Positions 2,251 through 48,270 of a stretch of 64,000 bases of DNA are shown here, in pieces. A model generated the notes under the pieces. It was not told the DNA's origin and ran no database searches. It saw nothing but the letters and a program-made list of their open reading frames with translations. The DNA comes from Lentisphaeria bacterium (GTDB lineage Bacteria > Verrucomicrobiota > Lentisphaeria > JABSQK01 > JAWLHB01). The position numbers and the translations under genes were made by a program. Position 1 is the first letter of the stretch, and each line of letters starts with the position of its first letter. The DNA lies in assembly GCA_041690595.1 (NCBI GenBank), contig JAWLHB010000012.1, positions 36,785-100,784 of the forward strand. Direction: 5' to 3'.

Positions 2251-3189
2251 ATGAGAATGGCGCGGATCAAGCATCGAGGCGGCGGCTGCTACTACCATCT
2301 GACAAACCGAACGGCAGGTAGCGAGAAAGACCGGCCCTTTGGTAAGGTTGAGAAGAAGAAGTTCGAGAATCAGGTGCATTCCCTGAGCACGCTGTATTCG
2401 CTGCAGGTGGTAACTCTTTGCGTCATGTGCAATCATTTTCACCTCACACTGTTTGTTCCAGGCGAACCTCCGAGCCGGAAAGAAGCCGCCCGCCGCTACA
2501 ACAAATTCTACAAGGACAGGCACCCCATCACCGCCGACTCGCCCATCGCCGCCGAACTGGCGCCGCGCCTCAATGACATCAGTCACTTCATGCACGATCT
2601 GCAGCAGCGTTTCACGGTCTGGTTCAACAAGAGCCGCCCGATCCGGCGTCGCGGCGCGCTGTGGGCCGGCAGGTTCAAGAGCGTCATCCTCCAACGCGGC
2701 ATGACCCTGTGGAACGCCATCAAGTACATCATCCTTAACCCCGTGCGCGCGAAGATGGTCAACGATCCTGCCGACTATCGCTTCAGCGACTGGGGGCATT
2801 GGCATGAAAGTGGACGACATCCCTTCGAATCCAACTTCGTGACCCACGTCTGTCGCAGCCTTGGCCATCGCGCCGATGGCTGGGATGCCAAGCGGCTTCA
2901 GTCTGAGCTGCGCACCGACCTCGCCCGCACCATGGCTGCCGACGCCGATGCCAACGCGATTCAGGCTGCCTGCGAGAGCGGAAAGAAGCGTCCGGCGCCG
3001 ATCCTGCGCGCCGATCGCCGGAATCGCTGCTGGAGCGATGGCGCGATCATCGGCGATCGGCAATTCGTCCACGAGGTAGCTGGTGCCGTCTACGGCAGCG
3101 ATGCCATCAAGAAGAAACGCCTTGGAAGCGGGCGCCTGCCCGATTCCGGCGAGCTGCTCTACAGCTTCCGCAGGCTGCGCAAGGACTGA
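2251..3189 (+). CDS. IS200/IS605-family (COG1943, RAYT-like) HuH-Y1 transposase, long form (312 aa)
   Basis: HuH motif in CNHFHLTLFVP. GALWAGRFKSVILQ and WNAIKYIILNPVRAKMVND match the Y-I-x-x-N-P-V-x-A-x-hydrophobic catalytic-Tyr helix typical of IS200/RAYT transposases. A GGGG stretch lies 9 nt upstream of the ATG. Confidence 0.75.
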   Translation: MRMARIKHRGGGCYYHLTNRTAGSEKDRPFGKVEKKKFENQVHSLSTLYSLQVVTLCVMCNHFHLTLFVPGEPPSRKEAARRYNKFYKDRHPITADSPIAAELAPRLNDISHFMHDLQQRFTVWFNKSRPIRRRGALWAGRFKSVILQRGMTLWNAIKYIILNPVRAKMVNDPADYRFSDWGHWHESGRHPFESNFVTHVCRSLGHRADGWDAKRLQSELRTDLARTMAADADANAIQAACESGKKRPAPILRADRRNRCWSDGAIIGDRQFVHEVAGAVYGSDAIKKKRLGSGRLPDSGELLYSFRRLRKD

Positions 3190-3299
3190 CGCCCGCCAGC
3201 TGAGCGGGCAGGGAGGCACGGCAGAGCAGACGACTCTCCGGGGTTGGACGGGTCAATGCCTGCTGCGTGCCCGCAGGCCACGTAAGTGCCTGTCGGGGG

Positions 3300-3890
3300 A
3301 GGACGTTCCCGGATGGGGGCACTGCCCATGGTCGGTGCCTGGCCGGGTTCTGCCGGCCACGCCAATTGAGAACGAGGTCGTCATGTGTCCGACTTCTGTT
3401 GTTGAGTGAAGTAGCGTGGTCGGGTTGAGGCGCTCAGACGAGAGGCGAAGAAGTGCCTGTGCCCGTGTTGTGCTCAGACGAGAGGCGAAGAAGCACCTGA
3501 CCCCGTGTTGAGGCGCTCAGGCGAGGGGCGTTCCGGGGGTAGGCGAGGCGAGAAGTACTTGGCGCCGGATTGAGGCGACGGGCCGAGAATTGGTAGTGAC
3601 AAGTACCTGTCCCCGGATTGAGGCGGCGGGCCGAGAATTGGTGGTCACCGCTGCGTTGCCGGGGGCACCGCAGGTGCCACTCAGGCGAGTGGCGTTCCCA
3701 GGAGGAATGGGGCACTGCCGATGATCGATGCCTGGCCCCGTTCTGAAAGCTACGCCAGTTGAGGGGGCGACCGCATCATCTGTGCAACATCCGAGGACGC
3801 AGATTGCTTGATTCGCGTGGAAGCTACCGCTGCATTGCCGAGGCGCCGCAGGTGCCACTCAGGCGAGCGGCGTTCCCAGCATGGGAGCGG
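3300..3890. repeat. Non-coding block of imperfect direct repeats: pairs of ~80-bp (3300-3395 vs 3700-3790), ~50-bp and ~35-bp segments, several carrying the hairpin GGCACCgcaGGTGCC
   Basis: Repeated strings are visible (e.g. gctcagacgagaggcgaagaag... twice; ggattgaggcgRcgggccgagaattggt twice; cgctgcRttgccgRggcRccgcaggtgccactcaggcgagYggcgttccc twice). Only short low-complexity ORFs lie here. Confidence 0.7.
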
Positions 3891-3909
3891 CGATCGAGAC
3901 TGATCCTGA

Positions 3910-4377
3910 TCAATACTGATCCTGATCGAGGAACCTGACGATTTCGCGCTGCAGCTTCGCCTGCCGTTCCGCGATTCTGTCGGCTGGCGTCTCACGGTAG
4001 ATGTCCGTGATGTCACCGGCACCCTCCTGGATGCGCTGGCACAGCTCGCGGGCGGTCAGGACGTCGCCATCGCCGAGGCCGAGGCGTTCCGCCCAACGCT
4101 GATCGAGCAGCAGGTTGTACTCGCGTTTGGAGCCAGGGGCCTGTGGACGAAAGGAGGTGTCGATCGTGTCGTCGCACAGCCCGTCGATGCTGTGGCAGCA
4201 TGGCCGGCAGATGTCATCGGCACCAAACTCCATGCGGAGTTCCACATCGCGTTCGGCGAGCACAGCCTTGGTGACGCTGTGCACTGCGTGGCCGTAGGGA
4301 TGGGGTGGCGGTGCCTCGACACCATCCCCGAAAGCCGTGATGATGTCGACGAAGTGATGTGGCTTAATAGCGATCAT
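3910..4377 (-). CDS. Cys/His-rich small protein, DUF1284-like (putative Fe-S/metal-binding)
   Basis: Translation MIAIKPHHFVDIITAFGDG...ICRPCCHSIDGLCDD. The ATG at 4377 has a GGAGGAG Shine-Dalgarno just upstream. Track ORF 3910..4413 starts further upstream at a weaker start. Confidence 0.55.
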   Translation of the reverse strand: MIAIKPHHFVDIITAFGDGVEAPPPHPYGHAVHSVTKAVLAERDVELRMEFGADDICRPCCHSIDGLCDDTIDTSFRPQAPGSKREYNLLLDQRWAERLGLGDGDVLTARELCQRIQEGAGDITDIYRETPADRIAERQAKLQREIVRFLDQDQY

Positions 4378-4458
4378 CGTCTCCTCCCGTGAATGGGTTG
4401 TCGATAGACCCACTGTTGCAGAAAGACTTCCGCCGCGCAGTACGGGTGGGCCACGGAC

Positions 4459-5457
4459 TCAGCCGATAATCATGGGCTGACGAGCCGGCTGAACGCCATC
4501 CTCGCAGCAAGTCTCGGCGATCTCGATCTGAACCTGCGAGAGGGCATCGATCAGCTCTTCGGGTGACTCGAAGCGGTCGTCAAGATTCTTGGCCATCAAC
4601 AATTCGAAGACTTCGGTGAGCTGGTAAGGAATGTTTGGGGCAATCTCGCTGGCGGGCGTCAGCGGTTCTTCAAGGTGCTTCCAGGCAATTTCCTCTGCGG
4701 TGCGTCCCGTGAAGGGCAGCCTGCCAGTGGTGAGGTGGTAGAAGGTGGCGCCCAGGCTGTACAAGTCGCTGCGCACGTCCATGTCGCTGCCGAGGACATG
4801 TTCCGGGCTCATGTACGGGACCGTGCCGACAATGGTGTCGCTGGACTGGACTTCCGAGAGTTCGCTGCAGCGGCAGGCCATCCGAAAGCCTGTAAGCTTG
4901 GCGTGGCCGGCATCGGCGAGAAAGATATTGGCCGGCTTGATGTCGCGATGCAGGAGATCGTGTTCCTGCCATGCATAATCGATGGCGCGCGCGATCTGCT
5001 GCATGAGCATGATGGCCTGGAAGGGAGGCAACGGACCATCGCTTTCGAGGACGGCTTCGAGATCGCGCCCTTCCAGGTACTCGACGGCGGCAAAGTAGTT
5101 CTCGTCCTCCTGGCCAAGGGCGTAGGCATGCACGATGTGGGGATGAAGTAGCCGCGCCATATAGCGCGCATCCGTAACGAACTGGTTCACCAAGACGGGG
5201 TTGCCCAGCAGCTCGCGCTTCAGGAGTTGCAGGATGACGACACGTTCCAGCGAGAGCTGGTGCGCCAGGTGCAACGTACAGATCCGCGCTTCTCCCAGCC
5301 CTGCCATCACCACGAAGTCGTTGATCACGATTCCCAGAGCAAGGCGCGATGCCGGTATCAGCGTCTCTTTCTGACAGAAGTCGCAGATGATGGTATCATT
5401 GAAGGTGACCGTCTGGCGGTCGAGAATCTTCTCACATTGAGAGCACAAAAAGCGCAT
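4459..5457 (-). CDS. Zinc-ribbon Ser/Thr protein-kinase-like protein, probably a pseudokinase
   Basis: N-terminal CSQCEKIL...CDFC zinc ribbon. Kinase catalytic loop HRDIKPANIF and activation segment GTVPYMSPE are present. DFG is replaced by TGF, and no clear VAIK lysine or GxGxxG loop was seen. Confidence 0.7.
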   Translation of the reverse strand: MRFLCSQCEKILDRQTVTFNDTIICDFCQKETLIPASRLALGIVINDFVVMAGLGEARICTLHLAHQLSLERVVILQLLKRELLGNPVLVNQFVTDARYMARLLHPHIVHAYALGQEDENYFAAVEYLEGRDLEAVLESDGPLPPFQAIMLMQQIARAIDYAWQEHDLLHRDIKPANIFLADAGHAKLTGFRMACRCSELSEVQSSDTIVGTVPYMSPEHVLGSDMDVRSDLYSLGATFYHLTTGRLPFTGRTAEEIAWKHLEEPLTPASEIAPNIPYQLTEVFELLMAKNLDDRFESPEELIDALSQVQIEIAETCCEDGVQPARQPMIIG

Positions 5458-19296: not shown

Positions 19297-20685
19297 TTAT
19301 CCCGGTCCCGCAAAGGTGTAATAGGGTTCGTTGTTCAGGATCCGCTGAAGGTAAAGTGCCACCTCGAGCGCATGATAATCGCCCCACATGCTCGCCTCGC
19401 CACAGGGGATGCTGCTGCCCTCGGGCACATGGTCCCACCCGTTGGGACGGTGATAGATCGAGTGCAGAAGAAGCCCCTGATGGGCCGGATCCTCGCTCAG
19501 ATAGGGCTCATCGAAAAGCGTTTTCAGCACCTGCAGCCCAGCCTGCCAGTAGCGGTCACCCTTGGCGCGATCGCCGTGTTCCTGAAGGAAGCGCCCCAGG
19601 CGCAGGAGCCCCTGGCTGCCGATCGCCGCCGCCGAGCTGTCCACCGGTTCATGATCATTGTAAGGTTCGGCCGGTCGCTCGAGGTAATCGCCCATGGCCG
19701 CCAGCCCCGGCGCACCGGTATCCCAGTAGGGAATGCCGTCGATCGGGGTATGCTCGATGTAGAAGTCGCAGCTTGCCAGCGCGGGACGAAGCAGCATCTC
19801 GTTCACGCGTGCCCGCCCACCGAACGGCGCGAGCTGAGCATCGTCCAGCCTGCCGATGAACTCCAGCTCTTCCGCGAAGCCGCACATGATCCAGGCCAGC
19901 CCACGCGTCCACGTGCTGAACGGCGAATACCCCTGCTGCGAATTGGGACAACGGAAAACGCCGTTGTTGGTGTTGAAGATGCTCTCGTGCGCCACACGTC
20001 CATGCAGATCGTAGCTGTCTCGCCCTTCCCCGTAGAAGACCGCATAATCGGCAGTGACCCCGGCATGATGGAGCAGACGCTCGAGCAGGGAAACGTTGGC
20101 ATCCTGCTCCATCATCAGCGACTGCCCCAGCTCGTGCGCGACGGCCAGAGCGCGCAGGGAGCGAATGGTGTCGGCGAAAAGCGAGTGCGGCCCGTTGAAG
20201 GAGTAGATGTAACCACGCCCATCGGCAATTGGCGTCCAGCGTACGGCCTGAACAACCCCCGAGCACTTGAGCGCCATGCTGTAGAAATCCACATCACCGT
20301 CAGTGGCGGCGATCTTCCCTTCCCGCGCGAGACGCAGCAGGTTGCCATAGGTGCTGACATTATTGAAGCCGTGGTCGTGTACGCCCACATGCGTGACGTG
20401 CCCGGCCATGTTGTGTCGGGTATTCTCACGGCCCAATTGCAGAAATTCTTCATCGCCAGTGGCATCGAAGAGGAGCAGCGCACTGCCATATTGGAAGCCC
20501 TGCGTCCATTCGGTCCAGCCACGGGCCGTATAGCGGCCGGCGACAGTAAAGACCGGTGCGCCCGAGCCCAGCGGATAGTCATGATCGATCGCGCGTATTT
20601 TTCGCGGCGCCGCGGCAAAAACCCGAGCTAGCTGTGGCTGCAGGTCGGCCGCCTTCAAGTTTGGATCAAGCTGAATGATAATCAC
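19297..20685 (-). CDS. GH88/GH105-like unsaturated glucuronyl/rhamnogalacturonyl hydrolase-fold protein
   Basis: HDHGFNNVSTYGNLLRLA and overall alpha/alpha-toroid-like sequence. Family assignment is tentative. Confidence 0.5.
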   Translation of the reverse strand: MIIIQLDPNLKAADLQPQLARVFAAAPRKIRAIDHDYPLGSGAPVFTVAGRYTARGWTEWTQGFQYGSALLLFDATGDEEFLQLGRENTRHNMAGHVTHVGVHDHGFNNVSTYGNLLRLAREGKIAATDGDVDFYSMALKCSGVVQAVRWTPIADGRGYIYSFNGPHSLFADTIRSLRALAVAHELGQSLMMEQDANVSLLERLLHHAGVTADYAVFYGEGRDSYDLHGRVAHESIFNTNNGVFRCPNSQQGYSPFSTWTRGLAWIMCGFAEELEFIGRLDDAQLAPFGGRARVNEMLLRPALASCDFYIEHTPIDGIPYWDTGAPGLAAMGDYLERPAEPYNDHEPVDSSAAAIGSQGLLRLGRFLQEHGDRAKGDRYWQAGLQVLKTLFDEPYLSEDPAHQGLLLHSIYHRPNGWDHVPEGSSIPCGEASMWGDYHALEVALYLQRILNNEPYYTFAGPG

Positions 20686-20915
20686 ACCTGCCAGATAAGA
20701 TTTTCATGACCTCGTCTGCATAAAGAGGCGTGTGCAGCCCTATCCGCCGCCCCGCCTGGATATCCTTAACAAGCATAGCGCATCAACCGCAGAAGTACAA
20801 ATCCCTGCCCCACGATAAGGAAAAAGTTCTTTACCCGCGGCGGTAGCCTCCCGTTGCTCTCGCATCGTCGCCCTTCGGCATGCCGGATTTGTACGAGATT
20901 CTCTCGGGCGCTGGG

Positions 20916-20944: not shown

Positions 20945-20963
20945 GCCTCAGTTTCTCGTCTGA

Positions 20964-21037
20964 GCGGGTATAGCATAGTGGTAATGCTCCAGCCTTCCAA
21001 GCTGATTAGAAGGGTTCGATTCCCTTTACCCGCTCCA
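20964..21037 (+). tRNA. tRNA-Gly (anticodon TCC), 74 nt with encoded CCA
   Basis: Manual cloverleaf: acceptor GCGGGTA/TACCCGC, D-arm GCAT-AGTGGTA-ATGC, anticodon loop CTTCCAA (U33, TCC, A37), T-arm AAGGG-TTCGATT-CCCTT, discriminator U, CCA. One C·A mismatch at the top of the anticodon stem. Confidence 0.85.
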
Positions 21038-21226
21038 CTTCCCCCCTCCGACCTCCGCAACTCCCTGCCTCCCCAGCAGGATACCTTGCCCAGCTCCCCA
21101 CCCTTCCGCCATTGGCGCAGTGGTGTTTGACTTGCCGCTACCGGCGGAATGCTCGATTAGCTAGCTATTGCCAGCCCCATTCCAGGGCGCCGGAAAGCGA
21201 TTTACGCCCGATAGGCGGTTTGCGCA

Positions 21227-21256
21227 GAGCGGGCGGATTCTTATACCCGCTCCACT
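21227..21256 (+). repeat. Relic duplicate of the tRNA-Gly termini. The 13-bp TACCCGCTCCACT is an exact direct repeat of the tRNA 3' end (21027-21039), preceded by GAGCGGG, forming a mini acceptor-stem hairpin
   Basis: Exact 13-bp repeat 210 bp downstream of the tRNA. gagcgggcggattcttatacccgctcca mimics the tRNA 5' and 3' ends with the body deleted. Confidence 0.6.
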
Positions 21257-21286
21257 CTTCTTCACGCGCACTGTCAGCCATCACCC

Positions 21287-22951
21287 TCAGGCTTCGGCCG
21301 TGAGCGAGAACAACTGCTCGGCGCGGACTTTTACCGCTTCCAGATCGTCAAGGAAGTTTTGCCGCGCCTGTTCCAGGAATTGACCGGCAAGCTGCTGGTA
21401 GTAGCTCAACCCAGCCAGGAAGTTGGTGGCGAATGCTTCCTTGAAGCGGACCGTGCCGAACTGCTCCTTGAGCCACAATTCGCTGTCGACCCGGGCAAAG
21501 AGCCCAAGGTACTGCCGCGCTTCCTCGATGAACATGTGGGGACGCTTCTTGTCGTCCATGACCGAGAGACGGCCGTAGATATGATCGACAAGCTCTTCGA
21601 GCGAGAGCTGGCGGCTGAAGTACTTGATGTTTGGCCCCGGGCAGACAGCGGCGGGCGAAGGACTGGGCAGCCCCTTGCTGACATACGCGCTCGTGCCCAG
21701 CTCATGACAGATGCACGAGCGGGCCAGCAGTTCATCGCGAAGCTGAGGATCGACGGAATCGTCTTTCAGCTTCGCCTTGATGAATTGGCGGGATGCGGTG
21801 CACAGGGGCAGGCCCCCGACCTCCGTATTCAGCCGGGCATAGCCTTTTGGACAGGTGGTGCCGGGCTTGCCGGCCTGATTCCGTTTGAGGCGCGCCTGCT
21901 CACTGGTGGAGGTCATCAGCGTCCAGAAGGGAATCCCCAGCGGCGATGCCGCACTCAGCATCGTGTCTCCCTCTTTAGCCTCACACAGGAGCTTCAGATG
22001 ATGCTGGTCGATGTTCACCACTTCCGGCACAAGCAGGAATGGCGTCCCCCAGCCGGTGCGATCGCAGCCATAGTGATCGATCAGGAACTTATGCTCGAGA
22101 TAGGTGCCGACTCCGCCCTGCGCGGTCAGCATCTGCCGCGGACGGCATTCAAGCTTTCTGCCGGTGCGCTTTTCGAGCCCGCGCTGCCAGATGGTATACA
22201 GCGACTCATACAGCGTCTCGCGGTTCTCCTGGAAGTCCGCCAGAGCCGGGCCCAGCAGGATACCGGGGGTCGGATAAGCATGACCGCCGCAGTTCAAACC
22301 GGACTCCACCCGAAACTCGGAAACCCATAGCCCGAGCTTTGCCAGCATCGTTCCCTGGATGCGCGCCGAGCGATAATCGCTCACCTTCAGCGCGAGCTTC
22401 TTGCTGAAGTGGCCGTCCGCATCTGGATGCAGTTGTTCGTGCGCGGCCAGAAAGTCATACAAACCCTTATTGACGCCGGCCGACAAGACGAGCGTTCCGT
22501 GCGCCCGGCTCTCGAGGTAGCCTTGGGCCGCGGAAAGAGCATCGGAGAGGGGCATGCTGCCGCGATCGGGATAGGTGGTCCGATCCGCATCCAGCGCAAC
22601 CATGATGTTGGCGTCGATGCTGCCGCGGGGAAGATCCTCGCCGACGTCCGGCAGCAGGCGCCGATAGCGTGCGACAAGCTCCGGCTTGCTCGCCTTCCAC
22701 GCTTCCTCAATCAGATCTTCCAGCAGATCCAGATACAGCCGAATGCGTTCGGCCCGACAGTCGATACCCGGCAGCGCCTGTGGCTCTCTGCCAAAACGTT
22801 CGCAGTAGTGCTTGTAGTAGTGCTCGATGAGCACATCATCCACCAGTGAGATGGTGGAGTCGATGCCAAGCGGCGCAACTTTGAGTGGGGTATCGAGCGT
22901 AAAGCCAGTTCCCATGACGGGAATATGAAACGTATGGTGCATCGTGGTCAT
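21287..22951 (-). CDS. Hypothetical protein (554 aa), no recognised domain
   Basis: Long ORF with protein-like composition. Preceded by a 630-bp ORF-free leader. Confidence 0.6.
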   Translation of the reverse strand: MTTMHHTFHIPVMGTGFTLDTPLKVAPLGIDSTISLVDDVLIEHYYKHYCERFGREPQALPGIDCRAERIRLYLDLLEDLIEEAWKASKPELVARYRRLLPDVGEDLPRGSIDANIMVALDADRTTYPDRGSMPLSDALSAAQGYLESRAHGTLVLSAGVNKGLYDFLAAHEQLHPDADGHFSKKLALKVSDYRSARIQGTMLAKLGLWVSEFRVESGLNCGGHAYPTPGILLGPALADFQENRETLYESLYTIWQRGLEKRTGRKLECRPRQMLTAQGGVGTYLEHKFLIDHYGCDRTGWGTPFLLVPEVVNIDQHHLKLLCEAKEGDTMLSAASPLGIPFWTLMTSTSEQARLKRNQAGKPGTTCPKGYARLNTEVGGLPLCTASRQFIKAKLKDDSVDPQLRDELLARSCICHELGTSAYVSKGLPSPSPAAVCPGPNIKYFSRQLSLEELVDHIYGRLSVMDDKKRPHMFIEEARQYLGLFARVDSELWLKEQFGTVRFKEAFATNFLAGLSYYQQLAGQFLEQARQNFLDDLEAVKVRAEQLFSLTAEA

Positions 22952-23585
22952 GAATGGATCTGTGATTGGCCTTCCGCTCGGCGGTTGAGTCGCTGCATGG
23001 TAACTCTCTTCCGGATCCAGGCGAAAGCGGCTGTTTTCGCGTCTCGATCCAGGCGGAAACCCCGCCCGGGGTGCTCCCCATGCTCAGGAACGACGGTACA
23101 AGCAGGCGAGTGACCATCATCGTGCAGGTGTTTAACCATCCATGCACCTGATCAGCGTCGCAACAGCACGTCTTCCCCGAGCACCCACAATCACCATCCT
23201 ACGGATTCAACCCTTGCGTTACAAACACTTCGCGACAACTCATACTCCAACCAACATGAGACCACTCTTGTGAGTAACCGCATGAGCCAGGGTGATGATC
23301 TGGAAAATCGCAAATCCCAATATCTTACCTTACACCGGTTTATCAAGTCCGGCTGGAAGAAATAGGCGGATGATCGACGGCAACAGAGGTTGGGCCAGCG
23401 CGTCACTCGCCGGGGATTGGCTCAATTCGAATATTACGAAACCGCACGTGGCCCCCAACCCGGCTCTTGCCGCGATTGTAGAGGTAGAGCTGCATCACGC
23501 CTTGGTCGGTTGTGGCAAACTCCATGCTCACTGGGCTCCAGGTATCGGGGGAAAATCATGATCGCAAGACAACCGTAAAATACGT

Positions 23586-26567
23586 TCAGCGGTAGTAGAT
23601 CTTGAGGTAATCGGTCGACGCCAGCGGCAGGCTGCATTCGATCCGCTCGCCCTCCACGGAGAAGGGCAGCTCTCCCTGGTGTATGCTTTCCACCCGCGCG
23701 ATCGGCTTCGACACCTGTATAGAGAGGGCCAAGGTGTAGATCGGCGAGAGTGTGTAGTTGGCCAGCGGGATGACGATACCCTCCTCGCAGGTCATGTAGA
23801 CCGCGTCGATAAGCGGCACGCTGCACCGCACCGGCGGATCGACCGCGGCATCGCGCACCGGCTGCAGCAACGCCTCACGTAGCGCCGCCGGATACTCCCA
23901 CGGATTCGCCGAACGCTCCAGGATGGCGCGCCTGGCCTGGCCCGCCTCGTCGAGAGTAGCGGGGTCGGCATCCTGCAGGGCCTTCCTGGCCACCAATGCC
24001 TCGCGCATGTAGTCGAGTGCCGGCAGGAAGCCGAGGCAGTGGATTGTGCCCTGGCCGCTCTTGCCGGTTACCCAGGCCGGTGTATCGTCCGCAAAAGTGC
24101 CAAGCACCGTAGCACCCTCCCGCGGCAGCATGGCCTGCCGGACGGAGAGCACGTTGAAGTGGGCCGCTCCAGCGGTCACCGTATCCTGCGCGTTGAGCGT
24201 GGGCAGGTAACGTCCGGAGGAGCGGAAGGACTGCGGCGTTGTTGCCTCGGCGCGCTCGGCGGGAAGAATGGCTGATATATTCCGCAGTGGACGGTCGTAC
24301 TCGTCGCGGCTGGCGGCGTCGGCAGTGGCCATCAGCGTCCCCCCCTGCCCCACCCACTCGACCAGATTCTCGCCGGCAGCGCGGGTCAGATTCGGTCCCG
24401 ACAGATAGCAGACGTCATAGCCGTCGAGCAAACCTTTGACGACCTGCTCTTCAGAGAGGATATCGACCGGTATCTGCCCATGCGCGAGGGCCATCCAGGT
24501 GAACATGCGGTCGAAGCCGTAGGCAAGGTTGCGGTCGATCTGCCAGGCATCCGTTGCGGAAGAATAGAGGATGGCAACCCGCGCCGGCGCCGGCATTGCC
24601 GGCAACAACAGATCTTCGGCGCCGCCGATCTCCCGCACCAGCTCCGCGTGTGGCACCCACATTGCCGGCTTCGCCTGCCAGCAGTGACTGCGCCATGCCG
24701 GCCCCCCTTCATGGCTGCCCCAGTAGACCCCATACGAAAAGCTCTTGAGAATCTTGGTGCCACGCGCGACATTCCCCGCGGCCTTCAGTTTGACGTCGAG
24801 CGGCCGACGGCCCGCGTGCGCGATCAGGTAATGGCCGATCACCTGCCCCCTTTCTCGTGCCGCCGCGCGCATGAGATCCACGTTGTAGGCGCCGCACTGG
24901 TAGCTCGCCGCACCGTTAGCCCAGTCTTCTCCCCAGATCGCATTCTGACCGCCATCGTTGAGCAACTCGAAATAGTCGACGCCCTGGCTGTAGAAGTTCC
25001 CGTGATAGGTAGCTCCATCACTGAAATTGACCAGAACGGGAAAGGAACCGCCGACGGCCGCTTCGAGCGCCCGGCGCTGCACCGCGATGAAATCGCCAAG
25101 CGCCTGCGTCCGGAAACGCTGACTGAAGTAATAGAGGGCCGGGAAGGCTTCGCGTTGAGCCAGCGTCACCGGACGAACCGCCTCCCAATCCGCCACCAGC
25201 AGCTCCTCCGGCGTCAGCGAAAGCCCCTCCAGCCAGGACCGGAAAGCCACGATATAGGCTTCATCCTCGGCGATGAAGTCGAGCGGTTGCCCGGTTGGCT
25301 CGTCCATGACCATCGAGTAGACGACGTCGCTGGGAGGCTTGCCGGTTGCCGCCCATTCGGCGGCCCGCTCCGCGGCGCGTGCCGCTATCTTCTCGTGGTC
25401 CGGCCGGCAATAAGAGCCATCCTGCATCTGCCAGGTGCCTCCCGCCAGGCGCGACTTCGTCCAATTGGAGAAGCCGAAGTAGCCCAGAGTCTTCATTTCG
25501 CGGTCATGAACCGCCTGATCGACCGGGGTGCCGTACCCGCCGATGCCCACGGCCACGAAGAAGGGGAAATGCTCCGGATGCTTGCCGATGGTCGGCCAGG
25601 GCGTCTCGTCGGCAAGCTTGCCCGTCTTCTCCGCAAACTCCTGATCGCGAAGCAGCCGGGAGCGGTGAAGCTCGGTTGTCAGGTCTGGTGGACAGACGAC
25701 GACCAGGCCGTTCGGCTGGGCCGCGACCTGCATCGTGCGAACGATCGCGTCGTCGCTCGGGGCGGTGGCGAATTCAAAGGTGGCGTGCAGCATCTCCTCG
25801 CGCTCATGGTACGAATGCCGCATGGTGAAATTGAGGATGGCCCCGCTGTCCTGGTAGAGCATCGGGGTGATATTGCACCAGGGCGTCTTCTCACCTGCCT
25901 TGAGGCGTGCCGCCGGCGGCGGCCGCAGACCATCGAGGAAGCCTGCCTTCGAGAGAGTATGGTGCCCGTACCATGGCGCCCGATAATGATCGGCAAAGAT
26001 ATGCACATAAACCGGTCGCGAATACGCGTCGCCAAGCGTCACCCGCAGATACGTCTGTATGCCATGATTCAGATGATCCGGCGTCAACTCCAGATCCGTT
26101 GTCAGCAGGACGCAATCGACGTGGCGGGTGTACCCGCTGAGGCTTTCGCTGGGGGCCTTGGAGAGGCTCAACTCCACCGGCCCGGCAGGCAGCTCACATT
26201 CGAAAGAGTCCCAGATGAACTCCTGCCGCTTGCCGTCCTCGCGCTCCTCTCCGTCGAAGATCTTGCTGCCCAGCAATTTATCATCCTGCAGCACCTCCAC
26301 CTGGAAGGTCCCGCGCCAGCGATGCCAGTAGCTGTGTCGCACCCAGACTCGCCACGTGCCGCCTTCCGGAAGGTCGACCTGCCGACGCGCCGTTGCATCC
26401 TTGTCGCCAGTCGCTCCGTGCAACGTCCACAGTTTCGAGGCCAGACGATTCTCCGCCGGCGTCCAACCTGACGATTCAACGGTGAAGTCCTCCGCCTCCA
26501 GAAAGATCGTCTCGGCGCTCACCTGCAACGTCATACACACGAACATGGCCAACAAGAGTCGGGGCAT
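23586..26567 (-). CDS. Secreted 993-aa protein, probably a glycoside-hydrolase-like enzyme (family not assigned)
   Basis: Signal peptide MPRLLLAMFVCMTLQVSAET. Large multidomain composition typical of CAZymes. CAZyme neighbourhood. Confidence 0.65.
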   Translation of the reverse strand: MPRLLLAMFVCMTLQVSAETIFLEAEDFTVESSGWTPAENRLASKLWTLHGATGDKDATARRQVDLPEGGTWRVWVRHSYWHRWRGTFQVEVLQDDKLLGSKIFDGEEREDGKRQEFIWDSFECELPAGPVELSLSKAPSESLSGYTRHVDCVLLTTDLELTPDHLNHGIQTYLRVTLGDAYSRPVYVHIFADHYRAPWYGHHTLSKAGFLDGLRPPPAARLKAGEKTPWCNITPMLYQDSGAILNFTMRHSYHEREEMLHATFEFATAPSDDAIVRTMQVAAQPNGLVVVCPPDLTTELHRSRLLRDQEFAEKTGKLADETPWPTIGKHPEHFPFFVAVGIGGYGTPVDQAVHDREMKTLGYFGFSNWTKSRLAGGTWQMQDGSYCRPDHEKIAARAAERAAEWAATGKPPSDVVYSMVMDEPTGQPLDFIAEDEAYIVAFRSWLEGLSLTPEELLVADWEAVRPVTLAQREAFPALYYFSQRFRTQALGDFIAVQRRALEAAVGGSFPVLVNFSDGATYHGNFYSQGVDYFELLNDGGQNAIWGEDWANGAASYQCGAYNVDLMRAAARERGQVIGHYLIAHAGRRPLDVKLKAAGNVARGTKILKSFSYGVYWGSHEGGPAWRSHCWQAKPAMWVPHAELVREIGGAEDLLLPAMPAPARVAILYSSATDAWQIDRNLAYGFDRMFTWMALAHGQIPVDILSEEQVVKGLLDGYDVCYLSGPNLTRAAGENLVEWVGQGGTLMATADAASRDEYDRPLRNISAILPAERAEATTPQSFRSSGRYLPTLNAQDTVTAGAAHFNVLSVRQAMLPREGATVLGTFADDTPAWVTGKSGQGTIHCLGFLPALDYMREALVARKALQDADPATLDEAGQARRAILERSANPWEYPAALREALLQPVRDAAVDPPVRCSVPLIDAVYMTCEEGIVIPLANYTLSPIYTLALSIQVSKPIARVESIHQGELPFSVEGERIECSLPLASTDYLKIYYR

Positions 26568-43459: not shown

Positions 43460-45445
43460 ATGACAGCATCCGATCTCTCGACAAAGAAGTTAGCCATGTA
43501 TGAGGCCTCCGCCCGCCTCGACCTCCTCACCCCGCCCCGACCCGCCACCGATGACGAGCTTGCCCAGGCCGCCGAGATCCGCGATGGCAGCATCCGCTTC
43601 AATGCCAATCAACCCGCCGATGTTCCCAAGACCCTCCTCCTCGTCGGCAGGAAAATGATCGATTGGAGCGGCGGCCATCTCCATCACCAGGAATGGCCAA
43701 CCCAGTTGAGTCGCTTCTTCATGCTCGGCCCCCTCATGAAAGCCTACCGGGCAACCGGCGACGCCGCCTTCGCCGAAGCCGCCCACGATTACATCGATGA
43801 CTGGATCGACAGCTTCGACGCAGAAGACATCGGCCTCCGGGGCAACACCTGCATGGATATCGGCATCCGTCTCGGTACCCACGGCGGTGGCGGCTGGGCG
43901 CCGGCCCTTGCCCTCTTCATGGATATTTGGAGCGATGCCTTCATTGACAAGGTTCTCCGCTCCATCGAGCAACAGGCACAAATCCTCTGGAAGCGCGGCA
44001 TTCCCTCCAGACCATGGGGAAACCATCGCATCTTCGGTTTGGACGGCCTCCTTCACGTCTGCCTCCGCCTGCCTTTCCTGCCTGACGCCGACCAGATGCT
44101 GGAGTGCGCCCGAAACGGACTCCAGCACGCCGCCAAAAGCCAGTTCCTCGAAGATGGCGCGCACATCGAAGCCACTCTCGGCTATCATCAGCACATGGCG
44201 CAGACCTTCATCTACATGCACCGGCTCGGCCAGGCCTTTCCTGAGCTGGGCATCAACCTGCCGACCGACCGCCTCCTCAAAGCCGCCGAGTATTACCTGC
44301 ATACCCAGCCCACCGGTATCAACGATACCTCTGCCTCCTGGCAGGATCGCGCCTGCCCCGACGCCTGGGCAACCGCGCGCGCCTGGCGGGAAGCGCTCAC
44401 CGGGGTGGCCGATCCCACGTGGCAGCCTGCCCGCGATGCCCACTTCGCCAGCGTCGGCCAGTGCTTTGCCCGCTCCTCATGGGAGCCCGGTGCCGACTTC
44501 CTCGCCTTCGATGCCGGCCCCTATTCCGGTGCACACGCGCATCTTGCCAGGCTGGGCCTGGTCTTCCGTTCCGGCGGCCGCCTCTGGATTGCCGATCCCG
44601 GCACCTTCGACTACGAAATGTCCAATCCATATGCCATCTACGGCCGCTCCACCCCCGCCCACTCCACCCTCAACCTCAATGGATTGAATCAGGGGCTCGG
44701 CGATGCGCGGATGCCCCAGGCCGTCATCCGTGACGACCTCGTCTTCCTGCACGGGATCTATCCCGGCGGCTACTGGAGCGGCGAGTATTCCTGGGGCTTC
44801 CAGCAGGGGCTGGGCACCGGCATCCATGGGCGCCATGAGCGTCTGGTCCTCTGGATCCGCGACGACTATCTGCTTGTCTTCGATGCCCTCATGGGCGATC
44901 GCGGCAGTACCGTCGAGAATGTCTGGCAGATGGCGCCAGTCAAGGGCTGGACGCACGATCCCGAGACCCTCTCCTGGCAATCGCGCGGCGAACCCGTCAA
45001 TTTCCACCTGCAGATGCTTCTTCCTCCCGGCGATGTACGGATGCAGATTCACCAAGGCGAGCAGGATCCCCTGCGCGGCTGGTTCTGCGAAGCCTACTCC
45101 AAGGGCTTTATCCCCGCGCCTCAGATCGTCTTCCGCTACGACACCGACTCCACCTTCCATGCCACCTTGGCCATGCCCCTCAGCGAAGGACGCCAACCGC
45201 CAGTCGTGCGAAGCTCCGCCGCCGCCGGCGACCGCGAGTTGGAGCTTGCCTGGCCGGATGGCAGCGTCGACTGGATCGGCATCTCCCAGAGCCTCTGCGT
45301 ACCTCTGGGCGAAGATGGACCCGCCGTCACCGACAGCCCCCTCGTCTGGATCCGCCTCGATCCCGAAGGCACCCCCCGCCGCCACTTCATGATGAATGGC
45401 ACCTACCTGCGTTTCCGCGGCCAGACCCTCGTCAGCGCCACCTGA
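43460..45445 (+). CDS. Heparinase II/III-like polysaccharide lyase family protein
   Basis: FDAGPYSGAHAHLARLGLVFRSGGRLWIADPGTFDY matches the Hepar_II_III GHAHxD...DPGTxxY core. AGGAA lies 8 nt upstream of the ATG. Confidence 0.65.
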   Translation: MTASDLSTKKLAMYEASARLDLLTPPRPATDDELAQAAEIRDGSIRFNANQPADVPKTLLLVGRKMIDWSGGHLHHQEWPTQLSRFFMLGPLMKAYRATGDAAFAEAAHDYIDDWIDSFDAEDIGLRGNTCMDIGIRLGTHGGGGWAPALALFMDIWSDAFIDKVLRSIEQQAQILWKRGIPSRPWGNHRIFGLDGLLHVCLRLPFLPDADQMLECARNGLQHAAKSQFLEDGAHIEATLGYHQHMAQTFIYMHRLGQAFPELGINLPTDRLLKAAEYYLHTQPTGINDTSASWQDRACPDAWATARAWREALTGVADPTWQPARDAHFASVGQCFARSSWEPGADFLAFDAGPYSGAHAHLARLGLVFRSGGRLWIADPGTFDYEMSNPYAIYGRSTPAHSTLNLNGLNQGLGDARMPQAVIRDDLVFLHGIYPGGYWSGEYSWGFQQGLGTGIHGRHERLVLWIRDDYLLVFDALMGDRGSTVENVWQMAPVKGWTHDPETLSWQSRGEPVNFHLQMLLPPGDVRMQIHQGEQDPLRGWFCEAYSKGFIPAPQIVFRYDTDSTFHATLAMPLSEGRQPPVVRSSAAAGDRELELAWPDGSVDWIGISQSLCVPLGEDGPAVTDSPLVWIRLDPEGTPRRHFMMNGTYLRFRGQTLVSAT

Positions 45446-45510
45446 AAGCGAAAGGCCCCCGCCGCTTCATTGATGCGACGGGGGCCGATCGGCCAGATTA
45501 AGAGCCTCGA

Positions 45511-46779
45511 TCAGAACTTGTAGATCGCGTCCATCTGGTAGAGGTTCGCCTCATTCTCCCCCTCGATTTGCTCGAGAAGCATGGCCGTGGCACCTAGTGA
45601 GAAGTTCTTGGTGAGCTTGTAGCTGGCGCTCAACTTGTGGCCTTCCACATTCGTGTTGTAGAGCCCGGCGGTATCGCCGAAGTCGGAATCCTTGAGGAAA
45701 GGCGGCGCCGAATCGGCCTCCACATAGCCGTAGGCATAGCCCAGGCTCCAACTGCCGACCTTTGCGCCGATGCCGGCCGTCCAACCCAGATCCTCATCTT
45801 CAGGCGTCAACCCTGACACATTGCTGGCAGTGCCGTCCGCGCCAAAGTTGCTCCAGACGTCGCCGAAGAGCGACAGGGTCGCCTTGTCCAGCTTCAGCGA
45901 AAGCTCCCCGTACAGGTCGCCGATATGGTAGTCATACTCCGAACTGAACGGCGTGAGCAGCTCGCTGGTCTGCGCATCATAGTAGTAGTATGCCGCCGCA
46001 ACCTTCGCCTTCATACCCTTGCCAAGATCGCCACCCCAGCCGAGCTGCGCTGCCACCAGCGATGCATTGTCGCCGTTGCTGTCGCCGTTATCGCTGGCAT
46101 AGAGCACCTTGTATGCGCCCATCGTGGCAAAGAACCCGGCCATGTCACCAGTCACCGTTGCGCCAGCGGGCCGGACATCGCCGTCCCAAAGCAGAAATGA
46201 CGAGACAAAGGGGTTCGACTGCTGGCCCAGGATCACCGCCACCTTGCCGTCATCACCCTTCCACGTGTGCTTCGCATAGGCATAGTCGATCCGCAGGTCG
46301 CCGGTATCGAAGGGGCCACTGTCCGACCAAGTGTCGTTTGTACTCGTCGCGTCCGATCCGCCCGACGCCACCCCGACCCCGATCTCCCAGCCTTCCTCGG
46401 CGGCCCAAACGCCCCCAAGCCGGAGCCGGGTACGGAAGCGATCGCGAGTCGTCTCCGTGCTCTTGTCCACATCCCGTGCCTCATACCGCAGGCGAAGATC
46501 GCCCTTGATCTTCAGATTCGAGATGTGATCGCTCAGCTTGATGCCCCCGCCACTGCTACGCTGCGAAGGATCCACCGCCCGATCCACTTCCTCGCGGATC
46601 TGTCGCGAAAGCTGACCCTGATTCTCATTGAGCTGTCGACGCATGCTCTGGATCTCCGACTGCTGCTGCCGGATCTCCTGTTGCATCTGCTCGATCTTCT
46701 TCAGGATCTCATCATTCTCAATCGCCCACAACGAGGCGCTCAGCGCCAAGGTCACAGTCAGTACAAAAAATCTCTTCAT
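45511..46779 (-). CDS. Outer-membrane beta-barrel porin-like protein with N-terminal Gln-rich coiled coil
   Basis: Signal peptide MKRFFVLTVTLALSASLWA, alternating amphipathic beta-strand pattern, C-terminal aromatic residue (…IYKF). Confidence 0.6.
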   Translation of the reverse strand: MKRFFVLTVTLALSASLWAIENDEILKKIEQMQQEIRQQQSEIQSMRRQLNENQGQLSRQIREEVDRAVDPSQRSSGGGIKLSDHISNLKIKGDLRLRYEARDVDKSTETTRDRFRTRLRLGGVWAAEEGWEIGVGVASGGSDATSTNDTWSDSGPFDTGDLRIDYAYAKHTWKGDDGKVAVILGQQSNPFVSSFLLWDGDVRPAGATVTGDMAGFFATMGAYKVLYASDNGDSNGDNASLVAAQLGWGGDLGKGMKAKVAAAYYYYDAQTSELLTPFSSEYDYHIGDLYGELSLKLDKATLSLFGDVWSNFGADGTASNVSGLTPEDEDLGWTAGIGAKVGSWSLGYAYGYVEADSAPPFLKDSDFGDTAGLYNTNVEGHKLSASYKLTKNFSLGATAMLLEQIEGENEANLYQMDAIYKF

Positions 46780-47214
46780 GATTTTCCCTCACTCCTTAAG
46801 GTATTACCGAGATGATCTTCACAACACCCTCGCCTCTCAACTGGGGTTTGACGAGCCCCCGCACGTTCCACACCAGCCTCCCTTGGTTTCGCGTTCCACT
46901 GCATCTGGTTCAGCAAACGAGTATACCCTAAGGCTCTCTCAGCACTCCCGCTCGGCGCTACGGTTAAGACCCCGTAAAGATCCCGCTAATCCCCCATTTG
47001 CCCCTCACCCAGCATTGCTCCAACGGAAGGAGGAGGACACTCGACAACCGCAACAGGCACTCAAACATCCTGTACATTTCGATGTTCTTCAAGCGTCAAC
47101 GGACAGGACACCCACTTTGATCCCCTGAGCGTGAGAAATTGGGTGCTCTGCTGGTTTCTTCTGGAACGCAACCTATACTAAACGTCGTTGAAGCATCCAC
47201 ACTATAACGAGAGC

Positions 47215-48270
47215 ATGAACATGGCAATTGGTCATCTGGAGGCCAGACTATTCACCGTTTTCTCGAAGATCGACTTGGACTTCTCTCCCGGTATCAACGT
47301 CATCATCGGAGAGAATAGCACGGGCAAATCACACCTGATGAAATTGCTTTACGCCGTGAGCCAAGTGCTCTTCACCTCCGAGAAAGAAGGTGAGCGCAAG
47401 CTGCTTGAAGCCGAACTCCACAAGAAACTGGTGAACACGTTTAAGCCGGATGAGGGAAAGCTGGGGCGGCTTGTGCAACGTAGCCGTGGTCGAGCCACAG
47501 CGAGAATGAATATCAGGTTCGGCACTGGTGGTTTCAGCTTTCGATACACCACGCTCTCCAATCTTGCCATTGAGCAGGTCGGTGCAAGACAAGAGGATAA
47601 TCCTATCTTCATACCCTCTCGGGAGGTCCTTGCCATCTACCCCGGCTTTGTGCAAGCCTACGAGAATCGGGAACTGGCATTCGATGAAACGTACCGGGAC
47701 ATATGCGTCGCGTTGAGCGGCTCCCTTACGCGAGGCCCACGGCAAGAGAAGATCCAGGACCTCGTATCGCCACTTGAAAAGCGTCTCGGTGGTAAGGTCG
47801 TACTGGACAACGATCGCTTCTTCGTCAAGGCCAGAGATGGTAATATCGAGGCACACTTGCTCGCGGAAGGTCTTCGCAAGCTCGCCAGTATAGTCTTCCT
47901 CATCAACAATGGCTCGCTCACCGAGCGCAGTATTCTTTTCTGGGACGAACCGGAAGCCAATTTGAATCCCACCCTCGTCAAGCTGCTCTGCGATGTCCTG
48001 CGCCAGCTTGCCAATAGCGGCATGCAAATTTTCCTCGCTAGCCACGATTACCTGCTCACTCAGGAGCTGGCCTTGGCATCCGAGTACAAGACAGAGCCCC
48101 ATGTGCCAATCCGCTTCTTTGCCCATAGCCGCAACGCAGAGGGCCACGTTGACATAGAACAAGCCGATGATCTCGCCGAGTTACGTAACAACGCCATTCT
48201 GGAGGAGTTCGCCGCACACTACGACCGGGAAGCCATGCTCTTTGCAGAACGTGCGGAGGTCCAGAGATGA
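47215..48270 (+). CDS. AAA_21/ABC-type (SMC/RecF-like) ATPase of the kind found in abortive-infection/defence modules
   Basis: Walker A GENSTGKS, signature-like LAEGLRKL, Walker B SILFWDEPEANLNP, H-loop IFLASHD. The track ORF starts at TTG 47188. ATG 47215 or 47221 is more likely. Visibly lower G+C than the flanks. Confidence 0.7.
   Translation: MNMAIGHLEARLFTVFSKIDLDFSPGINVIIGENSTGKSHLMKLLYAVSQVLFTSEKEGERKLLEAELHKKLVNTFKPDEGKLGRLVQRSRGRATARMNIRFGTGGFSFRYTTLSNLAIEQVGARQEDNPIFIPSREVLAIYPGFVQAYENRELAFDETYRDICVALSGSLTRGPRQEKIQDLVSPLEKRLGGKVVLDNDRFFVKARDGNIEAHLLAEGLRKLASIVFLINNGSLTERSILFWDEPEANLNPTLVKLLCDVLRQLANSGMQIFLASHDYLLTQELALASEYKTEPHVPIRFFAHSRNAEGHVDIEQADDLAELRNNAILEEFAAHYDREAMLFAERAEVQR

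Follow-up and report, generated by a model that had tools for sequence, protein, structure and literature searches.

The locus

The window analysed here, i.e. the whole 64-kb stretch of Lentisphaeria DNA, contains a single tRNA gene, a tRNA-Gly(TCC) identified by ARAGORN that scores 66 bits with the Rfam tRNA model against a gathering score of 29. The tRNA-Gly(TCC) of the original prediction was thus confirmed. This gene lies between a divergent upstream gene and a convergent downstream gene (Table 1), in a stretch where base composition is flat. The product of the convergent gene, a protein of 554 aa, has no match in Pfam, NCBIfam, PDB or PADLOC and is not an integrase. It has >8000 homologues, of which the best non-self ones are no more than 45% identical and are mostly from Syntrophobacteria and other Desulfobacterota, and the neighbourhoods of these homologues vary (two contexts, P0023 and P0102, are unrelated and carry no tRNA). 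The gene may have been acquired horizontally. Elsewhere in the window, the families recognized by Pfam in some 30 large ORFs include glycoside hydrolases, transporters, kinases and IlvD.

Table 1. Features in and around the tRNA-Gly(TCC) gene, with positions numbered from the first nucleotide of the window.
Feature	Position	Strand	Evidence
Divergent upstream gene, GH88-like glycoside hydrolase	19297..20685	-	~70% identity to Chthoniobacterales and Terrimicrobiaceae proteins
tRNA-Gly(TCC), intact, with encoded CCA and discriminator U73	20964..21037	+	ARAGORN; Rfam RF00005, 66 bits
First copy of the 13-mer, TACCCGCTCCACT (tRNA positions 66-76 and 2 trailer nt)	21027..21039	+	Sequence, repeat family D12
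tRNA trailer, 56% C and 12% G, putative Rho-loading site	21038..21105	+	Composition scan
Weak terminator-like hairpin followed by TTTGACTT, within the spacer	21107..21125	+	Consensus scan only
50-nt imperfect palindrome, proposed 3′ stem-loop/terminator of the convergent gene	21221..21270	-	Folding, shuffles, 28-gene comparison
'Mini acceptor stem' GAGCGGG/CCCGCTC, 7 bp, 12-nt loop, -12.3 kcal/mol on either strand, non-MFE register	21227..21252	.	Sequence, folding
tRNA gene fragment: degenerate T-loop remnant (GGATTC.TTA), then exact second copy of the 13-mer (21244-21256)	21235..21256	+	5 mismatches in 22 nt ungapped; gapped alignment
Convergent 554-aa gene, function unassigned by family searches	21287..22951	-	Pfam, NCBIfam, PDB, PADLOC

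The trailer that follows the tRNA gene is unusual in composition. It is essentially the plus-strand maximum of C-over-G skew in the window, ranking in the top 0.02% of all 68-nt stretches (the maximum itself starts at 21035), and this composition would be that expected of a Rho-loading site.

Three further features of the window deserve mention in their own right. An ATPase encoded at 47188-48270 (plus strand; Pfam AAA_21/AAA_15) matches the PADLOC candidate defence family HEC-02A (E 1e-98) and lies in a patch at 47-49 kb that is the only low-G+C stretch of the window (0.53-0.54 vs about 0.61). A tandem array at 1804-2086, within the intergenic region 1652-2244, consists of nine copies of the 24-nt unit CAGCCCGGGGACAGGTGCTTCCCT (98% identity) preceded by 11- and 18-nt variants; its six reading frames are all open, and no overlapping ORF has a family match. 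Finally, a 40-nt unit found twice at 3432-3510 (minus strand) has CAGGTGCTTC in common with this array, and its minus-strand end, TCTCGTCTGAGCG, is identical to 20954-20966, 13 nt that span the leader of the tRNA-Gly gene and its first three bases. This last identity may be due to chance or may be a common leader or promoter-proximal motif.

A fragment of the tRNA 3′ end downstream of the gene

The central claim of the original prediction, that a 13-bp exact repeat of the 3′ end of tRNA-Gly(TCC) occurs 217 bp downstream, was borne out. TACCCGCTCCACT, which is composed of the last 11 nt of the tRNA (3′ acceptor strand, discriminator and CCA) and 2 nt of the trailer, is found exactly twice when both strands of the 64 kb are searched (21027-21039 and 21244-21256). 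The two copies are on the same strand, 217 nt apart from start to start, with 204 bp between them. The 13-mer is hence not a common chance repeat within the window. No further copy with at most one mismatch is present on either strand of the 64 kb, for an expectation of 0.06 by chance, nor is there a third, decayed copy in the window, as allowing up to three mismatches yields 20 matches vs 15.7 ± 3.9 expected.

Local alignment of the tRNA with the 255 nt downstream extends the match to the left into a remnant of the T-loop (GATT--CTT-ATACCCGCTCCACT), and the score of this alignment was reached by only 2 of 2000 shuffled sequences. Identity has a sharp edge at the second copy, 13 of 13 positions being identical before mismatches rise to ~40% leftwards, which would fit the boundary of a block of identity better than a longer copy that has decayed evenly. 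An origin by chance is unlikely for a repeat that is exact, starts from the very end of the tRNA, keeps its strand and lies so near to the gene. What is found downstream is thus a genuine, non-random piece of the tRNA 3′ end in the orientation of the gene, with faint traces of the T-loop on its left.

The fragment forms one arm of a palindrome

The original prediction also noted that GAGCGGG precedes the second copy, and proposed that the resulting hairpin mimics the termini of the tRNA with the body deleted. The heptamer is indeed present at 21227-21233 and is complementary to CCCGCTC at 21246-21252, and GA is also the dinucleotide found at tRNA positions -2/-1, as it is before GCGGG in GAGCGGG. 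While these two arms can pair, a different register is favoured on both strands, one that draws the two C's of the 'CCA' (C52 and C53) into the stem; this fold is stronger on the strand opposite to the tRNA, just behind the stop codon of the convergent gene. The palindrome folds into a stem of 13 bp that has a single bulge and a loop of 6 nt, with a further outer helix of 5 bp, and has an energy of -26.1 kcal/mol on the minus strand vs -19.6 kcal/mol on the plus strand, because two positions that are G.U pairs on the former are A.C mismatches on the latter. The minus-strand fold is more stable than expected (z -3.2) and none of 200 shuffled sequences folds as stably.

The mimicry proposal may be put in functional terms. 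The hairpin would be a co-transcribed minihelix read by RNase P, RNase Z, the CCA-adding enzyme or glycyl-tRNA synthetase, and would act as a processing or regulatory signal. In its favour, the pairs formed by GAGCGGG/CCCGCTC, together with the CA that comes next, match the tRNA gene in its first five acceptor pairs, U73, the CCA and a pairing at leader positions -2/-1, while GATTC in the loop recalls the T-loop. An acceptor-like stem is followed by an encoded CCA as in tRNA minihelices and tRNA-like processing signals. The latter include the t-elements of plant mitochondria and signals of the mascRNA type. However, minihelix substrates have a coaxial acceptor/T helix of roughly 12 bp, whereas the stem here is too short, with 7 bp and a 12-nt loop, and has no T-stem. 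The corresponding register loses on both strands to the one that buries the CCA, so no stable acceptor-type helix with a free 3′ CCA is predicted. In addition, Rfam has no match at this position, and a transcript coming from the tRNA gene must first cross the rut-like tract and the terminator-like site in the spacer. A functional mimic is therefore very improbable.

The position of the palindrome suggests a different role. It starts 16 nt past the stop codon of the 554-aa gene, with the main stem 28 nt past it, and ranks third in strength when the 3′ hairpins of 28 genes in the window are compared; other convergent genes of the window likewise end in strong hairpins. Such is the case of convergent genes 43460-45445 (plus strand) and 45511-46779 (minus strand), which have in common a G+C-rich hairpin (45446-45510; -29 and -33 kcal/mol on the two strands) that is likely a bidirectional terminator. 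As in intrinsic terminators, the palindrome is a G+C-rich hairpin just past the end of a gene, but a U-tract is absent after it on either strand (the minus strand continues with GCGCAAACCGCC, the plus strand with CTTCTTCACGCG). It does not, therefore, qualify as a canonical intrinsic terminator, and a scan for the Rho-independent terminator consensus did not call it. It rather resembles the U-tract-less or bidirectional hairpin terminators found between convergent genes, with a G+C-rich palindrome 16-28 nt past the stop codon at a convergent junction and comparable hairpins elsewhere in the window (e.g. 45446-45510). It differs from these in that one of its arms is identical to the end of a tRNA, and a terminator role is here predicted only. 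On the basis of this anatomy and folding, the palindrome would provide the convergent gene with a 3′ stem-loop and form a barrier in both directions.

Could the palindrome be nothing else than an ordinary 3′ stem-loop or bidirectional terminator of a convergent gene pair, the 13 nt of identity with the tRNA being a coincidence between G+C-rich sequences? This would be in accord with its extent, since it reaches beyond the tRNA-like part on both sides, with its greater stability on the minus strand, and with a position and strength like those at other gene ends in the window. Moreover, exact 13- to 14-mers do recur by chance within a few kb in this DNA, as exemplified by CCCAGCAGGATACC at 21072 and 22251 (family D11). 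Nevertheless, the chance of finding an exact, same-strand 13-mer of the tRNA 3′ end within 220 nt is estimated at roughly 1e-4, the rarity of the alignment score among shuffles and the low expectation for the whole window point the same way, and same-strand downstream fragments are strongly enriched at tRNA-Gly loci relative to controls (see below). Coincidence is thus improbable.

Search for a mobile element

An intact tRNA gene followed by a same-orientation copy of its 3′ end is an arrangement of the kind left by integrative elements that target tRNA genes, whose islands have their ends marked by a regenerated target and a displaced fragment (PMC4383910). Integration is, furthermore, the widespread source of tRNA gene fragments (PMC9897764). 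The locus shares several features with tRNA-integrated islands and prophages as defined by Islander: an intact, possibly regenerated tRNA at one end, a 3′ fragment in the same orientation at the other that would correspond to attR, and a sharp-edged block of identity that runs through the CCA into the trailer. It departs from them in that only 204 bp separate the two copies, instead of kilobase-scale foreign DNA, with no cargo and no integrase between or adjacent to them. Also comparable are CIME-like elements, which are integrase-less decayed derivatives flanked by att sites.

The search for integrase remnants that the original prediction had called for found none. No integrase, recombinase, phage gene or remnant of these was recognized by Pfam among the ~30 large ORFs across the window, six-frame translation revealed no coding remnant in the 204-bp spacer and no integrase remnant in the intergenic region 22952-23586, and the spacer has no similarity to phage records by blastn. 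A third att copy that would bound a larger island to the right was likewise not found, as matches with up to three mismatches are at background counts. Among viral contigs none carries either junction as an att site; attP-type junctions gave 0, 0 and 1 matches, the single match (L132) being rejected as a coincidence within coding sequence.

Viral sequences did, however, provide evidence for an integrase that uses this tRNA end. IMG/VR contig L131 (IMGVR_UViG_3300046313_000479) carries at 3082-4528 an int-att pair, in which a tyrosine integrase gene with Arm-DNA-bind_2 and Phage_integrase domains is followed, about 250 bp past its end, by a tRNA-Gly fragment of 25 nt. This fragment, GGTTCGATTCCCTTTACCCGCTCCA, has the exact sequence of the final 25 nt of the tRNA of the window, and there is no full tRNA on the contig. 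Temperate elements that recombine in this tRNA end therefore exist, although the identity block of this phage is 25 bp long vs 13 bp at the locus. The proposal that the repeat is the footprint of an att pair left by a lost tRNA-targeting element thus stands in part: the same-strand fragment is non-random and a matching integrase is found in L131, whereas the window itself has no integrase and no third copy, and the spacer no similarity to phage records.

The comparison with orthologous loci that the original prediction had called for met with no close relative in the collections searched. No syntenic relative was found via the 554-aa gene, be it by a scan of genome contigs, by exact look-up or by homology search (best match 45%), nor via the GH88-like gene, for which three contexts of ~70% matches are non-syntenic and lack the tRNA. 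The taxonomy of these matches agrees, loosely, with an organism of the Verrucomicrobiota. The exact tRNA sequence is absent from metagenome contigs. With a relaxed pattern, the only near-identical tRNA locus (L126) is unrelated, having neither a second copy nor synteny, and a similar-looking hairpin at a Verrucomicrobiales locus (L054) is unrelated as well.

Possible duplication without a mobile element

A footprint resembling an att scar can also arise with no integrase involved, as judged by analogy with the tyrT/tyrV loci of E. coli. In strain K-12 (NC_000913), the last 19 nt of tRNA-Tyr occur three times at a spacing of 178 nt downstream of tyrV, with no integrase. The fragment could be the product of a local duplication, either by slippage or unequal crossing-over as at tyrT/tyrV, or by deletion within a tandem copy of tRNA-Gly. 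The likeness to the distal repeats of the tpr/rttR region lies in the presence of a tRNA 3′ end ~200 nt downstream, on the same strand, and in a Rho-type termination region after the tRNA, to which the C-rich, G-poor trailer would correspond. Termination in the distal-repeat region of E. coli is Rho-dependent. In E. coli, however, a whole 178-bp unit is present in 3.14 copies, whereas at the present locus the repeat is limited to 13 nt and a single extra copy, with unrelated sequence after each of the two (TCCCCCCTCC... vs CTTCTTCACG...). A tyrT-type repeat was rejected at the locus, given that only the 13-mer recurs and TRF finds no array.

The deleted-copy route has more to say about the hairpin. 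Deletion of positions 6 to about 53 from a second, tandem tRNA-Gly gene, between the two GGG runs, would bring GA and GCGGG next to what remains of the T-loop, followed by the 3′ acceptor strand, the CCA and CT. Such an origin accounts for both arms of the hairpin, and also for the GA/TC pair outside the acceptor stem. When the sequence is aligned by hand to a model tRNA that lacks positions 6-53, about 27 of 33 positions match, while computed alignments cover the 3′ part only. Tandem tRNA-Gly genes are, moreover, known from two of the background loci described below (L069 and L099). A possible additional trace of duplication is the 10-mer CTTTACCCGC, which combines the 3′ strands of the T-stem and acceptor stem and lies 135 nt upstream of the tRNA (20829-20838, plus strand), albeit with marginal significance (82 of 2000 shuffles score equally, p about 0.04).

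Against this, no pseudo-tRNA was detected at the second copy, whether with Rfam at E<=10 or with ARAGORN relaxed to -ps60 (21170-21260), and a tandem tRNA or pseudogene was rejected there in the absence of a cloverleaf or a match to tRNA models. Moreover, a pseudogene that decays neutrally would not be expected to keep perfect arms while its middle changes heavily; selection on a hairpin stem would give such a pattern. Duplication without a mobile element is a possible origin, somewhat less likely than integration. It should be kept in mind that integration has a difficulty of its own at this very point, as it leaves the paired left arm (GAGCGGG, or AGAGCGGGCGGAT in the favoured register) unexplained and needs either later selection or a different origin for it. 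The mobile-element origin put forward by the original prediction is one of two comparably likely origins.

Fragments at other tRNA-Gly(TCC) loci

An idea of how such fragments occur more widely came from a background set of 100 other tRNA-Gly(TCC) loci, taken among the matches listed for a degenerate tRNA pattern in genome contigs. They are mostly from Sphingomonadales and are not relatives of the locus. Any stretch of 10 nt or more from the tRNA 3′ end that recurs on the same strand in the 500 nt after the gene was counted as a fragment. Nine of the 100 loci listed have one, or eight without the one that is a tandem tRNA. The control positions gave no match on the opposite strand downstream or upstream, and one, a tandem tRNA, on the same strand upstream. 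Because the loci are phylogenetically clustered, this survey shows recurrence, not a rate. L069, from Akkermansiaceae, and L099 are loci with tandem tRNA-Gly genes.

Six of these loci, from Sphingomonadales (L009, L017, L058, L061, L081 and L096), have a split, partial copy of the 3′ half of the tRNA in which GGGGTTCGATT and CCCCCTTACCCGCTCCA are separated by 29-70 nt that include a conserved GCGCTC(C)GTTCG. It starts at a near-constant 26-36 nt past the tRNA gene, spanning 26-130 nt downstream. At the four loci scanned, the genes after it are housekeeping genes that differ between loci, and no integrase is among them. No conserved RNA fold was found in these Sphingomonadales fragments (RNAalifold -1.5 kcal/mol, no covariation). 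That short-range, integrase-less fragments of the tRNA-Gly(TCC) 3′ end form a recurrent, maintained class instead of debris is very doubtful. Were it true, they might act as secondary landing or recombination sites for tRNA-targeting integrases, or as signals for processing or termination of the tRNA-Gly transcript.

A model for the origin and fate of the fragment

Taken together, the preferred reading is that the fragment is an att scar of an integrative element that is now reused as a 3′ hairpin, to which we assign a probability of roughly 0.4. In this scenario, an integrative element would have recombined into the 3′ end of the tRNA-Gly(TCC) gene, the integration regenerating the gene (attL) and displacing its original end (attR). 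Later deletions would have stripped the element except for about 204 bp, which is far below the size of any element. The fragment now provides the right arm of the 50-nt palindrome, which folds best on the minus strand. Judging from its anatomy, the palindrome may form the 3′ stem-loop of the 554-aa gene and may also keep transcription, in either direction, from passing between this gene and the tRNA. Transcripts coming from the tRNA would meet the C-rich, G-poor, Rho-loading-like trailer first. If the element was indeed inserted there, an empty site would read as the tRNA followed directly by CTCTTCTTCACGCG.

Conclusions

On the best reading, the feature is an orphan tRNA gene fragment of an ordinary, known kind, which arose as an att scar or else by local duplication and is now part of a predicted 3′ stem-loop. 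That integration and local duplication leave fragments beside tRNA genes is textbook knowledge, and here no element is attached to the fragment. In island finding and tRNA annotation, orphan fragments as near as about 200 bp to the parent gene are to be expected. Beyond annotation, the locus suggests that a tRNA fragment can be reused as an arm of the 3′ hairpin of a neighbouring gene, and the survey hints that tRNA-Gly(TCC) loci gather such fragments more often than chance.
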